Shown here: in pieces, positions 1,553 to 8,587 of the stretch
How positions within the stretch are numbered: position 1 is the stretch's first letter
Layout: every line of letters begins with the position of its first letter
Source of the DNA: a virus
Taxonomy: Duplodnaviria; Heunggongvirae; Uroviricota; Caudoviricetes
Reading direction: 5' to 3' (one strand)
Length of the DNA: 8,991 nucleotides
IMG/VR virus record: IMGVR_UViG_2675903578_000015
Program-made: the position numbers and the translations under genes
The notes under the pieces: generated by a model
What the model was told of the DNA's origin: nothing
The model's input: only the letters and a program-made list of their open reading frames with translations
The model's database searches: none

Positions 1553-1740
1553 TCACGAGGACTGAAGTTTCTCGCAATTAAAATTTATCAGTTTTACTTT
1601 CTGCTCTCTGGAAACGCCTGCTTCTTTTTTACCTGAGAGCATTTTTTCGCATTCTGATTTCGTTAGTTTAGATTTTGAATATCTTGTCCAGTTAGTAGGA
1701 GTGCCACCTTCCTTTTCAATAGTGGCGGTAATTTTATACA
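1553..1740 (-). CDS. ydaC: Small prophage protein of unknown function, 62 aa from MYKITATIEKEGG... (66 aa if the upstream ATG at 1753 is used)
   Basis: Minus-strand ORF with TGA stop at 1555-1553. The ATG at 1740 is preceded by GGAGG with a 6-nt spacer; the alternative ATG at 1753 abuts the masked block. Position between xis and recT matches recalled ydaC of Rac. Confidence 0.65.
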
Positions 1741-2006: not shown

Positions 2007-2800
2007 TCGATTACACTGTATTCCCCGGTTAATACAGAGGAATCTGCAGGATCGATTGTCAGTGGTTCCTTTTCATCCATTGATACTGCACGCTGGATCT
2101 CAATTGATACGGGCAGATATTTGAACAGGCGACGAATAGCCGTTTTCTTTGCCATTTCTTCCCAGTGAGTTACCCACGGCCCGTTATTACCAGCTTTACT
2201 CTGGCTGCGCACCAGCTCAATCTGTTTGCGCGTCATAACTTCAAACTGAGTACCTCCGTCTTTCAGTCTTGCGACAGCATAGACGTGGGTAACAGGGGCA
2301 TCTTCGTTTTCTCCTGGGCGGTGTATTAACTTTTCATCAAGGCCAAATTCGAAATTAAACTCGTCACCTTCACGGACAACACGGGCTGACAGGCTGGCGA
2401 TTTGACCTGAACGGCGAGCCAGATCAATCATGCCGCGATAGCCAATGATTAGCTGAACGTTTTTTTTACCGCTCTTTTCGTTTTTATTACCAAAAGGCAG
2501 TAAATATGCATGACCGAGGGCGCTACCGGGCTCAAGTCCGAGCTGTGAACACTGTACGATTGCACTGACAAAACTCATAGTGTCACAGTTTCCTAACGCC
2601 GGAACTTTACGAATTTCTGTGGTGGCGATACGGATCATACGTTCAGCCGTCATATGGCGTGGAAGAGCTGCTGCCAGTTGCTCTTTCATTGATGGCTGGT
2701 TAATAAAACTAATCACGTCGTTATTTTTAATTGCTGCTGGTGCACGGTTTCCCTGAGTTTTTTGCAGATCGGCTTTTGCGATTGGTGGTTGCTTAGTCAT
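1991..2800 (-). CDS. recT: RecT single-strand annealing protein (Rac recombinase); 3' end and stop codon lie inside the masked block
   Basis: ATG at 2800-2798 preceded by AAGGAA. Translation [16 protein letters not shown]...[10 protein letters not shown] matches recalled RecT. The 1991 end is inferred from the recalled 269-aa length, not observed. The 434-aa ORF in the track is an artefact of reading through N. Confidence 0.88.
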
Positions 2801-5393
2801 TTGCATATTCCTTAGCCCAGCGGGGCAGTGATAACGTCTTAATAGCTGGCCATTCATCGGTATTGAGGCAGTCAGCCAGGGTTCGCAGATTGCGGTGATA
2901 TTCCAGCTGACCTGCCAGTTTTGCTTCTTCGCCCATCATGAAAATTTCAACCGGATAACGTCCGCATTCAATAGTTGTGCTGGCAACCAGAAAAACGAAA
3001 GTTGGCTGCACTCCAAACTGTGCTTCATAACCGTCACTGTAGAATGCATCCTGAACGTGATAGCGGTAGTCGTAATAAGCGGTTTTGAATCGTTGAATAT
3101 CCGCCGTAGTTTTCACGTCCATGATCCAGTGAAATTCAGGGATAATTTTGTCCGGACGGCACCGACACAAAATTGCTGTTTCAGGATCTTCCCAGTAAAT
3201 TGATGATTCAGCGTGTCCGGCGCTTTCAACAAGCCATTGCCCCAGCGGCAAAGCCATAACGCTCTGATACATGAGTTCAATTTTCCGGCCTTCTTCGGCA
3301 GTGATAACCGTTTTTCCTGTGCTTGCGCATTCCCTCAGAAACGCTTTCTCTTCTTCTTTTCCGGAGTTTGTCCGGCGGTTAAATTCAGGTGCTACGATAA
3401 AGCGGTTACTGAATTCTTCCGGCTCAAGTACCCGGCAGTGGAAAGCGGTTCCTAAATCGAGCGTTTTTGTCTTTGTGGTGTCCACGGGGGCATTTTTACG
3501 CCACAAATACAGTGCCGGAGTATCAGCAATGTCATCGAGCTGAGACTTACTGACACCGGGACCCGCGTGGTAATTCTCATTCGAAATTCCGTAATAAATA
3601 CCTGGCTCTATGTCTTCTACGATTACGGGATCTGCGACTTCGCCAGTTTCATCACTGCAATCGCGATGCGGATCGCTGCCAGCATTCTCATTGTGCGGAT
3701 GTTCAGCGCCTTCCATTTCCTCCGGATCATTTTCCTTAGCTTCAACCTGACTCTCTTCATCGAATGTTTCCTGGTATGTTGCGTCGCCCATCACCGCACC
3801 ACAGTCAGGGCAGTTATCCCCGCCAGTCTGGCCGCAGGCATTGCAGGCTATTTCCGGTTCCTGTTGCACTACTGGCTCAGGTTGATTCATATCCGGGCTG
3901 GTTTTTTCCGTTTCTGGCTGGTTCTGGTACACACAATCGCGAGTCTGGATCCCCTTTACCCATTTCGGATCGTTCGGGTCGCTAATTCCGTCAACAAATT
4001 CACCACGTGATGCAGCAAGCAATTTATCGGCATCGACAGGATTTTTTGATGGAATGTTTTTCCGGGCTTCATGGAGTTCTGCCCGCAGTTCCTGATATTT
4101 CGCATCAACAGAATTTACCTGTGACTGAGCATCCAGCGGCTGCGTGTCCTGATGATGTTCAGTTGCGTCCGGTTCCATTGTTTCAGCCTCTCCCTGTTCA
4201 ACTGCCGTTGTTCCAGATGGTTGCGGTTTTTCTTCATCATCCTGTTTTCCTTCTTCTGTTACTCGCTGCGGCATCGGGGCAGAGGAGCGACCGCAGGCAA
4301 TATCCACGATTTCCGGATCAGGGTTGGCATGATCGGTTTCAGTCAGTACTTTGTTCAGATATTCAGTGACGTGCGCGGGGATGACCTCGATCCCAATTGG
4401 TGCTTCTTTTACGGACGCAACCACGATGGCGCGGGAATAATCCAGCCCGCCAGGCATGGTGATGAATTTGTCGCGGAAAACAGAAAAGGGCGGTTTATTT
4501 TCAGCGATAATTTCCTCAATGCGTTTAGCGTGTGCCGGATGAAGGTTATAGATGTCCAGATCCATTGAACGGGCCAGTACGCCAGTGGCTACGTCCCGCG
4601 CCAGTGACGTCAGATCGTGTACGAAACCTTCGCCGCGATCGGTGAGGTTTCCGCCGCCAGCATTAGCACCGGAAGCCGTGCGAGTGATGTGTGAAACACG
4701 ATTACCCTTCATCCACTCTTTTGTCAGCAGTCCTCGATCGGTGTAGTCAGCGTTCAGGTATGCTTCGAAAAAAGCAGTTATCAGTCCCAGGTTTGAATTA
4801 CCAGGATTAGGGAAAACTTTGTCAGTGTCACGAACCAGTTTGTGGAGTTCGCGAATTTCCAGCGGGTCGAGCAGGCTGGTTTTGTGGGAAACAGCCAGGG
4901 CAGTAACAGCCGGTAGTTCTTCAGCCCGAGCAATGTGTAATGCCTGGAGTCCGTCGCGTGAAACGTGCGTTACCGGTTTTTCGCTGCCGTGTTGAGCAAG
5001 CCAACGAATGGGCAGTTCCTGGCCAGAAATTGGGAGTAGCATATTCTCCTCAATCTCAGTCATGTCTTCGCCGTTGACGTTGGTATTGCCTTGATAGTGA
5101 GCGTTGTCTGGTGCTGCTCCCGGTTTTAGTTCCCATGTCATGGAGTCTTTGCTGAGTTGATAGCGTTCACTCCAGGTAAAATCGATCTCACCTTCAGCGG
5201 GCAGGTCATTAACGACAGGAAAATTCGTGGCAACAGCTTTAAAATAGCTGCTCAGTTTTTTACCTGACTTAACGATCAGGTAGTCCAGAGTGGCACAGGT
5301 CGATTCAAAATCGTTGCTTGCCCACAGGACGACGTCAGGTTCACCGGATGATTTTTTCGCTTTCCGTAACAGGAAGAGTGGTTTTGTGCTCAT
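2793..5393 (-). CDS. recE: RecE exonuclease VIII, 866 aa; C-terminal third is the 5'-3' dsDNA exonuclease domain
   Basis: Uninterrupted 866-codon minus-strand ORF, ATG at 5393-5391, TAA at 2795-2793. The 3' end overlaps the recT start by 8 nt (ATGACTAA). Sequence matches recalled RecE. Confidence 0.95.
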
Positions 5394-5464
5394 TGTTTTT
5401 TAACCTCAACTCAGATTAAAATTCGTTTTGTTCAGTGAATGATCTTGCCGGATACACACTGTTC

Positions 5465-5489
5465 ATAGCCTGCGCCATACGCAGGCTAT
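5465..5489 (-). promoter_or_regulatory. Perfect 10-bp stem, 5-nt loop hairpin (ATAGCCTGCG-CCATA-CGCAGGCTAT) in the racC-recE spacer
   Basis: Read directly: 5465-5474 is the exact reverse complement of 5480-5489. It sits 5 nt after the racC stop. A T-rich tail follows on the plus strand only (TTTCTTTCAGATTT); none follows on the minus strand. Confidence 0.45.
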
Positions 5490-5494
5490 TTCTT

Positions 5495-5770
5495 TCAGAT
5501 TTCACCTTTTAATTTCATTGCAATTAGAGTTGCCAGAAATTCGGCTTTTTTTTCTGCGGGCAGATTCTTTCCGATATGCACCAGGCACATTTTTTTGACA
5601 CCTTCATCAAGTGTTTTTACGTTGCCTGATGGACCATCGATATCAACCACAGTGAATGGGGTTTCTTTATTTTCTGTTTTAATTACGTAGCCAATGCGCT
5701 TTCCTTCCAGATTCACCTCGTGAACAATGTCATCGGTAGTTACAACAGTGGCTTCATAATTGGTAATCAT
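5495..5770 (-). CDS. racC: Small prophage protein of unknown function, 91 aa (MITNYEATVVTTDD...)
   Basis: ATG at 5770-5768 preceded by a strong AAGGAG with 6-nt spacer. The 107-aa N-terminal extension in the ORF track has no ribosome-binding site. Matches recalled RacC. Confidence 0.85.
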   Translation of the reverse strand: MITNYEATVVTTDDIVHEVNLEGKRIGYVIKTENKETPFTVVDIDGPSGNVKTLDEGVKKMCLVHIGKNLPAEKKAEFLATLIAMKLKGEI

Positions 5771-6015: not shown

Positions 6016-6236
6016 CACCATGACTCCGCCTTTACAGGTAAACCATCACGACCGAGGAAGACTTTAATCATGCGGTCAGTAATGCATGTTTTTGTGGTCA
6101 GGTTACGAATATATAGTTTTCGCTTTTTAATATTGTTTGCCGAGGCAATATATGTCCGGCCTTCATGAAGAACATAATCGCCAGGAGTCACACACTGACG
6201 TGGTATTTCATCAGTTCCGAAGTGATGTGCAATCAT
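6015..6236 (-). CDS. kilR: KilR cell-division inhibitor (FtsZ-targeting Kil protein of Rac), 73 aa
   Basis: ATG at 6236-6234 preceded by GGAG with 6-nt spacer. The 77-aa version starting at 6248 has no ribosome-binding site. Translation [32 protein letters not shown]... matches recalled KilR. Confidence 0.85.
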
Positions 6237-6411
6237 AATTATCTCCATTTTTACAAATGAACTTTGTTGATGCGGTGCCTGGTGCCTCCAGGTGACTGCA
6301 ACCAGTTAACAATTACAGTCGGCTTTCCCACCCAAACCAATAAGGACTAACATGACTTTTAACTGTGCCACGTGCGCTTAGCCGCATTCACCGCATCACA
6401 AAATTCACTTT

Positions 6412-6459
6412 AAAAAGGGCGGACATCAGCCGAACTTCAAGAAAAAAACTGATGCCGCC
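6412..6459 (-). terminator. Candidate orientation-specific intrinsic terminator or attenuator upstream of kilR
   Basis: Inverted repeat GGCGGACATCAG (6418-6429) / CTGATGCCGCC (6449-6459), 11 bp with one bulged A, separated by a 19-nt A-rich loop. On the minus-strand transcript the stem is followed directly by CUUUUU (plus 6412-6417); there is no U-tract on the plus strand. The large loop is atypical. Confidence 0.3.
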
Positions 6460-6677
6460 AGGACTACACACAGCAATGTCGTTATTTACAACCGGAGGCG
6501 CACTCCCACCATTTAAATTTAACAGACAAGACCGACTCTTTATGGATATCGGAAATGCGCCTTCGTGTTGTGCCCGGTTTTATTTCACCACCTCCGGGCT
6601 TCGGTGGTCTCGGCTATACCCCTACAGCGAGAGCTTGTGTTAACATTTCAATACCCTTACAGTTGAGAGTTATTGAT

Positions 6678-7097
6678 ATGTTGGATGTATTTACTCCATT
6701 GTTGAAACTTTTTGCTAACGAGCCACTCGAAATACTTATGTATACGATTATCATTTTTGGTCTCACTCTCTGGCTGATACCGAAAGAGTTTACTGTCGCA
6801 TTCAATGCTTANNNNNNNNNNNNNNNNNNNNNNNNNNNNNNNNNNNNNNNNNNNNNNNNNNNNNNNNNNNNNNNNNNNNNNNNNNNNNNNNNNNNNNNNN
6901 NNNNNNNNNNNNNNNNNNNNNNNNNNNNNNNNNNNNNNNNNNNNNNNNNNNNNNNNNNNNNNNNNNNNNNNNNNNNNNNNNNNNNNNNNNNNNNNNNNNN
7001 NNNNNNNNNNNNNNNNNNNNNNNNNNNNNNNNNNNNNNNNNNNNNNNNNNNNNNNNNNNNNNNNNNNNNNNNNNNNNNNNNNNNNACATCAGAGTGA
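6678..7097 (+). CDS. sieB: Superinfection exclusion protein B, inner-membrane protein; most of the body is masked
   Basis: ATG at 6678 with GAGAG upstream. The visible N-terminus MLDVFTPLLKLFANEPLEILMYTIIIFGLTLWLIPKEFTVAFNA contains a hydrophobic transmembrane-like segment. The frame reopens after the mask as ..TSE-TGA at 7095-7097. Matches recalled Rac SieB; exact start and length are uncertain. Confidence 0.7.
   Translation: MLDVFTPLLKLFANEPLEILMYTIIIFGLTLWLIPKEFTVAFNAXXXXXXXXXXXXXXXXXXXXXXXXXXXXXXXXXXXXXXXXXXXXXXXXXXXXXXXXXXXXXXXXXXXXXXXXXXXXXXXXXXXXXXXXXXXXTSE
6812..7085. other. Masked or undetermined bases (274 N)
   Basis: Run of n characters; hides about 90 codons of sieB. Confidence 1.
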
Positions 7098-8277: not shown

Positions 8278-8574
8278 ATGAACCAGAAAACACTTGAAGA
8301 TGTAATNNNNNNNNNNNNNNNNNNNNNNNNNNNNNNNNNNNNNNNNNNNNNNNNNNNNNNNNNNNNNNNNNNNNNNNNNNNNNNNNNNNNNNNNNNNNNN
8401 NNNNNNNNNNNNNNNNNNNNNNNNNNNNNNNNNNNNNNNNNNNNNNNNNNNNNNNNNNNNNNNNNNNNNNNNNNNNNNNNNNNNNNNNNNNNNNNNNNNN
8501 NNNNNNNNNNNNNNNNNNNNNNNNNNNNNNNNNNNNNNNNNNNNNNNNNNNNNNNNNNNNNNNNNNNNNNNNNN
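8278..8574 (+). CDS. ydaS: Cro-like small regulator/toxin partner YdaS; only the first 9 codons (MNQKTLEDV) are visible
   Basis: ATG at 8278 with GAGGG 4 nt upstream, divergent from racR. The 8574 end is inferred from the recalled length of about 98 aa and lies in the masked block, so it is not observed. Confidence 0.5.
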
Positions 8575-8587
8575 NNNNNNNNNNNNN
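8307..8587. other. Masked or undetermined bases (281 N)
   Basis: Run of n characters; hides most of ydaS and the start of ydaT. The 261-aa ORF 8206-8991 in the track is an artefact of reading through N. Confidence 1.

Follow-up and report, generated by a model that had tools for sequence, protein, structure and literature searches.

In phage P22, the spacer between arc and ant of the immI operon reportedly encodes a small antisense RNA, sar, which is said to cover the ribosome-binding site of ant. Phage lambda is said to produce OOP, an antisense RNA of 77 nt directed against the 3′ end of cII, which acts via RNase III. Work on sar goes back to Liao et al. and Wu et al. (Genes Dev 1987), and work on OOP to Krinke and Wulff (Genes Dev 1987, 1990).

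RalA (Rfam RF02694) is an sRNA antitoxin of RalR and acts on ralR mRNA (Guo et al. 2014, PMC4041452). Precise RNA 3′ ends just downstream of stable stem-loops without U-tracts were described for Rho-terminated transcripts (Dar and Sorek 2018, PMC6061677). The recombineering genes of Rac are recE and recT, and their silence in wild-type K-12 is an old question of the sbcA literature; gene tables list sbcA as a synonym for both racC and recE. Here we describe a hairpin in the spacer between racC and recE where an abundant antisense RNA, located immediately before recE, has its 3′ end.

The racC-recE Spacer of the Rac Prophage

The stretch of DNA that was analysed (8,991 nt, in the following called the window) is the left arm of Rac, a cryptic prophage of E. 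coli K-12. A probe of 301 nt that spans the hairpin showed 100% identity to many E. coli chromosomes, where the flanking genes are annotated as racC and recE. The MG1655 record lists intR, xisR, rcbA/ralA/ralR, recT, recE, racC, ydaE, kilR, and kilS, all on the minus strand. Coordinates of NC_000913.3 equal the window coordinate plus 1411993, and the plus strands coincide. Three runs of N, of 251, 274, and 281 bases (1756–2006, 6812–7085, and 8307–8587), mask sequence and make the listed open reading frames that span them unreliable; judging from their coordinates, they hide ralR plus the 3′ end of recT, a portion of sieB/ydaF, and the region of racR-ydaS.

The early-left operon of Rac (kilR-ydaE-racC-recE-recT) is transcribed from the minus strand and is repressed in the wild type. 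Its racC gene (5495–5770, minus strand, 91 aa) ends with the stop codon TGA at 5495–5497, and recE (2793–5393, minus strand, 866 aa) starts with the ATG at 5391–5393. The spacer between them comprises 101 nt, and both of its strands fold far better than shuffled sequences (z = −4.3 and −3.3). The fold consists of three hairpins: HP1, which has a perfect stem, HP2 (5433–5461), and HP3 (5398–5421).

HP1 (5465–5489) is built from two arms of 10 nt each, 5465–5474 (ATAGCCTGCG) and 5480–5489 (CGCAGGCTAT), which are 100% complementary and enclose the 5-nt loop CCATA on the plus strand. The stem has a G+C-rich core of 7 bp (GCCTGCG/CGCAGGC) and three A-T pairs, with six G-C pairs in total. The original prediction, made from the sequence of this DNA, had described a perfect 10-bp stem-loop of 25 nt that lies 5 nt past the racC stop and about 70 nt before recE. 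This description is exact: 5 nt (5490–5494) separate HP1 from the racC stop codon, and the measured distance to the ATG of recE is 71 nt. No other perfect stem of at least 10 bp with a loop of 3–8 nt is present in the window. By chance, a mean of 0.063 such hairpins per window is expected, and 4.7% of 300 dinucleotide-preserving shuffles had one. HP1 alone folds with −16.2 kcal/mol (z = −5.4 versus shuffles). We also considered that HP1 might be a dispersed palindrome of the REP/BIME type and rejected this, as the 301-nt region was found at a median of one and a maximum of three places per genome, always at racC-recE.

A Published RNA 3′ End Maps to the Plus-Strand Tail of HP1

A stem-loop of this kind can be read on both strands, and the sequences that follow the stem differ. 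Past the stem, the operon strand continues with GAACAGTGTGTATCC (GAACAGUGUGUAUCC), which has no U-tract and a TransTermHP-style tail score of −1.57. The plus strand continues with TTCTTTCAGATTTCA (UUCUUUCAGAUUU), and its tail score of −3.99 is among the top ~3% of the 15-mers of the window. This bears out the earlier statement that a U-tract is missing in the direction of the operon and that a T-rich tail is found on the opposite strand. The U-rich tail (TTCTTTCA, 5490–5497, plus strand) reaches into racC, its last three bases being the complement of the stop codon. In a consensus scan HP1 was the first plus-strand terminator-like site.

Transcript ends in wild-type MG1655 have been mapped by Term-seq, and one plus-strand 3′ end of the published table, at 1417486, is assigned there to the antisense class with respect to racC (Adams et al. 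2021, eLife 10:e62438, supplementary file 1). The average read counts given for this end are 185,664 and 146,140; for scale, the same sheet lists 66,698 for sokC and 6,222 for sgrS. The coordinate appears three times, and the file has three growth-condition sheets. We located the sequence given in the table at window positions 5443–5503, and its 51st base, which is marked as the 3′ nucleotide, is T5493. The RNA thus ends with ...CGCAGGCUAUUUCU, 4 nt beyond the last base of the stem and 7 nt beyond the G+C core. These data show that an abundant RNA ends at HP1 in wild-type K-12.

HP1 resembles the intrinsic terminators of E. coli in its G+C-rich stem-loop within the size range of 7–10 bp, its short loop, its U-rich tract, and the position of the RNA 3′ end 7 nt past the G+C core. 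It differs from canonical terminators in that the U-tract is interrupted in K-12 (UAUUUCUUUC; the tract is better in a second haplotype described below, UUUCUUUUUUUC), and in that HP1 faces against an operon inside an intercistronic spacer instead of closing a gene. Judged by this sequence anatomy, the plus-strand terminator is predicted to be of the Rho-independent (intrinsic) type. In the Rho-termination table of Adams et al. 2021 we looked for coordinates starting with 14174 or 14175, and none with these prefixes was listed.

The original prediction had named 3′-end mapping on both strands as a check. For the plus strand the published end at 5493 provides a clear answer. For the minus strand the 3′-end table of Adams et al. 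2021 contains no end at 14174xx, which is uninformative because the operon is silent in this wild type. The original prediction had also tentatively placed sbcA mutations that activate recE in this neighbourhood; the reviews consulted list no coordinates for them.

Since the published 3′ end maps to T5493, HP1 is a working plus-strand terminator in vivo, oriented antisense to the operon. Among the functions that had been proposed for the stem-loop, a terminator for antisense transcription is therefore the one that is supported, by the tail, by the conservation in 229 loci, and by the 3′ end at 5493.

Conservation of HP1 in Rac-Like Prophages

E. coli genomes, phage records, and IMG/VR contigs yielded 229 Rac-like loci with the element, anchored either on the block around the recE start or on the hairpin itself. 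Homologues of the RecE nuclease domain elsewhere were left out, as they are found in unrelated contexts or on truncated contigs. The 229 loci contain 27 distinct hairpin-region sequences that belong to two main spacer haplotypes, haplotype A, to which K-12 belongs (ATAGCCTGCG-loop5-CGCAGGCTAT), and haplotype B ((AG)GCCTGCAC-loop3-GTGCAGGC(TT)). In every allele of the 229 loci the hairpin is located directly past the racC stop. All 27 distinct sequences have an A-run on the operon strand before the hairpin (GAAAGAAAT, GAAAAAAAGAA or GGGAAAAAG), which corresponds to the U-tract on the plus strand, and for haplotype B the plus-strand tail score is −5.2. Position and A-run hold even where racC is only 56–74% identical to the K-12 gene, and the most diverged RacC genes are followed by the same hairpin types. 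Lack of conservation in homologous prophages had been named as an outcome that would speak against a function of the stem; we found core, tail, and position kept across the 229 loci. RacC is confined to Escherichia and Shigella, and all homologous loci stem from prophages of these genera. The comparative evidence is supportive and not strong, because diversity is limited to these prophages.

To describe base pairing we used an alignment of 23 distinct alleles, in which 93.5% of the cells are paired versus 16–46% when the partners are slid against each other. In these alleles the G+C core is invariant and five pairs never vary, while changes on both sides were seen at two pairs, AU/UA and GC/AU. 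The plus-strand stem of haplotype B reaches 10 bp through an additional G.U pair; on the minus strand there is an A.C mismatch at this place, and the stem has 8 bp. Single transitions in the stems of HP1 and HP2 create a G.U pair on the plus strand in six cases and on the minus strand in two, a difference that is not significant. We therefore did not retain the balance of G.U and A.C changes as a criterion of its own for the choice of strand; the ratio of 6:2 leans toward the plus strand without reaching significance.

The same perfect stem is present on the minus strand, directly past the racC stop, and HP1 might mainly be a sense-strand element of the racC-recE mRNA, in keeping with the RNA processing or stability element that the original prediction had named as an option. 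It would then block 3′-to-5′ exonucleases after Rho-dependent termination or after endonucleolytic cleavage further downstream, stabilise the kilR-ydaE-racC portion of the mRNA, and determine the ratio of racC to recE expression. Elements of this class were described by Dar and Sorek 2018 (PMC6061677), and HP1 on the operon strand resembles them in being stable, in having no U-tract, and in following a gene directly. RecE RNA and protein are reported, with reference to Cardinale 2008, to increase in the presence of bicyclomycin, which inhibits Rho, so Rho limits leftward transcription here. In contrast to the stem-loops of Dar and Sorek, the conserved A-run and the G.U pattern of HP1 fit the other strand better: the A-run before the hairpin would have no role in a sense-strand element, the stem of haplotype B has two base pairs fewer on the minus strand, and the transitions lean toward the plus strand, if not significantly. 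The missing minus-strand 3′ end at 14174xx also speaks against a sense-strand element, a weak argument given that the operon is repressed in the wild type. We consider it unlikely that HP1 acts mainly on the sense strand, but a sense-strand function and the plus-strand terminator could coexist.

In 10 of the 229 loci (e.g., L026, L029, L054, L081, L091, and L102) the loop (window 5475–5479) is exactly inverted. It reads TATGG on the operon strand of K-12 and CCATA in the inverted loci, and the 10-bp arms are unchanged. The loop was probably flipped between the perfect inverted repeats by template switching. The inverted loop travels together with a variant of the racC C-terminus (KLGGEI).

The exact inversion indicates that the palindrome undergoes events at the DNA level, and HP1 also adjoins the boundary between the divergent spacer haplotypes. 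Both observations would be in line with a DNA-level palindrome that serves as a protein-binding site or recombination hotspot. Covariation of base pairs and the G.U pairs, on the other hand, point to selection at the RNA level, which argues against a DNA-binding site. A translational barrier for recE, which had been proposed as another function of the stem-loop, does not agree with the geometry of the spacer: HP1 ends 57 nt upstream of the recE Shine-Dalgarno sequence (GAGG, plus-strand CCTC at 5404–5407), and it is the separate hairpin HP3 that overlaps this sequence. The RNA 3′ end found in vivo explains HP1 without further assumptions, and we regard both the barrier and the DNA site as very improbable.

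HP3 is a weak, A/U-rich hairpin of the minus strand (5398–5421, arms 5398–5406 and 5413–5421, UUUUAAUCU/AGGUUAAAA) that covers the AGG of the Shine-Dalgarno sequence. It contains one U.G pair on the operon strand only, with a C.A mismatch on the plus strand. From this position in the sequence HP3, and not HP1, is the candidate for a translational brake on recE.

Two further loci deserve mention. L234, from a Logan contig (SRR23625871), has a replaced 5′ arm (GAAATAATACCGTATGGCGCAGGCTAT) just past a racC-like stop, and the stem cannot form; the cause could be natural loss or misassembly. In L016 (PP818812.1), a record with the name Actinobacillus phage vB_Apl-pPE4, there is a Rac-like kil-ydaE-racC-recE block of 88.6% identity to K-12, with a haplotype B hairpin. 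The host label looks odd for DNA that resembles E. coli.

A Predicted Antisense RNA between recE and racC

In order to get an idea of the transcript that ends at HP1, we searched the plus strand for promoters. In K-12, the highest-scoring sigma-70-like site of the 500 nt that precede the terminator is a predicted promoter at 5393–5422, with the −35 element TTGTTT at 5393–5398, an 18-bp spacer, and the −10 element TAAAAT at 5417–5422. Among the candidates it is the only site common to the three recE N-terminal allele types and to both spacer haplotypes, and it is the top-scoring site in all of them. Its distance to the end of the terminator stem is always 60–64 nt, while other candidates are allele-specific. 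The match to the consensus is modest (3/6 for the −35 and 5/6 for the −10 element, with the 18-bp spacer), and the promoter-like site alone is weak evidence, because each strand of the window has, on average, about one site with a score of at least 10 in every 600 nt. Its invariance is moreover confounded by elements of the other strand, as the predicted promoter overlaps the recE start codon, the Shine-Dalgarno sequence, and HP3. These three are contained in the block 5391–5423 (AATTTTAATCTGAGTTGAGGTTAAAAAACAATGA), which is nearly invariant, with two distinct variants (5 segments) among the 229 hairpin-anchored loci.

The flanks of this block differ from each other: two unrelated-looking spacer haplotypes are found on one side versus three recE N-termini (MSTKPLF..., MSTDKQVY..., and MSTDKQNF...) on the other. 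The block thus behaves as a mosaic junction between modules.

Transcription from the predicted promoter would start at about 5429/5430 and give an RNA of about 64 nt (5430–5493, plus strand), of which the 3′ end is mapped and the 5′ end is predicted. It would consist of HP2 (CAGTG...CACTG, 5433–5461), HP1, and a short U tail. Haplotype B has a different sequence at the place of HP2, which also forms a hairpin (GAGTGA...TCACTC). The predicted RNA folds with −24.9 kcal/mol (z = −4.9) for haplotype A and with −26.6 kcal/mol (z = −4.1) for haplotype B, and both share a common shape of 1–3 nt, HP2, 0–3 nt, HP1, and a short U tail. The predicted gene would occupy exactly the interval from the racC stop codon to the ribosome-binding region of recE. 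On reading the sequences, we saw no conserved ORF shared by the two haplotypes; the only AUG ORF of K-12 has nine codons and no Shine-Dalgarno sequence, and haplotype B lacks an ORF with a stop ahead of the terminator. We also considered and rejected a protein gene of the plus strand that would end at the terminator, since Pfam gave no match for the antisense ORFs within recE.

Like RalA, which was found as an Rfam match at window positions 1557–1735 on the plus strand, the RNA ending at 5493 is a plus-strand RNA of the Rac early-left region opposite the operon strand. Unlike RalA, it has no Rfam family and no annotation. A cmscan search of the whole window against Rfam 15 (E ≤ 1) returned only RalA, a DicF-like match, and an STnc100-like match, with none at 5394–5494, and neither RefSeq MG1655 nor phage Rac-SA53 has an annotation for the predicted RNA. 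Tables of sRNAs derived from Hfq RIL-seq (Bar et al. 2021 supplement) contain no racC entry and no genuine recE entry. Absence from the Hfq tables and a mature tail of just UAUUUCU do not fit an Hfq-dependent sRNA. The Cappable-seq and SMRT-Cappable-seq supplements listed no coordinate in the range of the predicted start, and the Cappable-seq supplement for EDL933 and the Shinhara 2011 supplement gave no match. The literature searched contained no named RNA at racC-recE, and the phrase racC-recE occurred in one paper only, on retrons. The 3′ end is already public in the table of Adams et al. 2021; the RNA itself is unnamed, unannotated, and undiscussed in the literature searched.

The terminator may be real and yet not belong to a dedicated sRNA gene. 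It would then stop pervasive or spurious antisense transcripts that arise in the A+T-rich recE gene and insulate racC, kilR, and the immunity region, and the 3′ end would be the exonuclease-resistant remnant of longer, heterogeneous RNAs. A Term-seq 3′ end is silent on 5′ ends, antisense 3′ ends are a common class in the data of Adams et al. 2021, and weaker promoter-like sites are present further upstream in recE (e.g., AGGAAA-17-TAAAAT at 5217–5245). These upstream candidates, however, are not common to the three recE allele types, whereas the terminator is kept in all of them. It would also be unexpected for a pure insulator that a hairpin in the spacer is kept in two very different haplotypes, and the read count is within the range of bona fide sRNAs. 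We therefore rate a mere insulating terminator as rather improbable, although it has more in its favour than a sense-strand element. It would be an ordinary function, yet even this would correct the reading of the hairpin in the direction of the operon.

The best sigma-70-like site of the whole window is TTGACA-17-TACGTT at 5595–5623 on the plus strand. It is located inside racC, downstream of the terminator, and is directed antisense toward ydaE and kilR.

Possible Effects on Expression of recE and recT

We favour the view that HP1 is the intrinsic terminator of a discrete cis-antisense RNA that is nested in the spacer and lowers recE-recT relative to racC, and we assign this reading a probability of roughly 0.55. 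RNA polymerase on the plus strand transcribes the G+C-rich stem and then the U-rich tract, with the RNA ending at U5493 in wild-type K-12, and the stable terminator hairpin allows the RNA to accumulate to sRNA-like levels. With its promoter placed on top of the recE translation-initiation region, the discrete cis-antisense RNA of ~64 nt would fill the racC-recE spacer with its body of HP2 and HP1 and touch neither coding sequence. Once the operon is turned on, the antisense RNA could pair with the spacer of the polycistronic mRNA and form a duplex of ~64 bp. Cleavage of this duplex by RNase III would separate or destabilise the recE-recT part and thereby uncouple its expression from that of racC or lower it relative to racC. 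Interference by convergent transcription at the recE start may act in addition to RNase III or as an alternative to it. Direct masking of the recE ribosome-binding site is unlikely, because the predicted RNA stops 22 nt short of the Shine-Dalgarno sequence.

By analogy, such a mode of action may be likened to that of P22 sar RNA or lambda OOP RNA. The Rac RNA would share with sar the class of antisense RNAs of ~65–70 nt and the location in an intercistronic spacer of a temperate-phage operon, as well as a promoter, predicted in our case, that is convergent with the operon promoter and an intrinsic terminator beside the upstream gene. It differs from sar in that the predicted RNA starts 22 nt away from the recE Shine-Dalgarno sequence and does not cover it. 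Analogous to OOP, it would be a short cis-antisense RNA that ends at a terminator within an early operon of the lambdoid type, and cleavage of the duplex is the proposed mode of action. OOP overlaps the 3′ end of a coding region, whereas the predicted Rac RNA overlaps non-coding spacer only.

If the RNA is a discrete regulator, RecET would be subject to an extra layer of control, post-transcriptional or by interference, which would set the ratio of racC to recE, and K-12 would have one more prophage-encoded sRNA. In a wider and more speculative version of this model, the spacer holds an unnamed gene for an abundant RNA of ~64 nt that acts as a gatekeeper keeping RecET low relative to racC, contributes to the silence of recE in wild-type K-12, and forms with its two haplotypes specificity groups that do not cross-react. 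We put this forward tentatively and hold it to be possible but doubtful. A review citing Bobonis et al. 2022 states that RacC blocks the retron toxin RcaT and that RecE is among the triggers of this toxin. Because RacC and RecE have opposite effects on one defence system, the ratio of racC to recE expression is of interest, and if the gatekeeper model is true, the RacC/RecE ratio could matter in conflicts over phage defence.

The two remaining Rfam matches of the window are both sub-threshold and lie on the minus strand upstream of kilR: an STnc100 match at 6229–6415 (35.5 bits, gathering threshold 47) and a DicF match at 6417–6472 (39.1 bits, gathering threshold 48). The DicF-like match is located inside the annotated sRNA KilS (b4833), which suggests that DicF of the Qin prophage has its counterpart in Rac in KilS.
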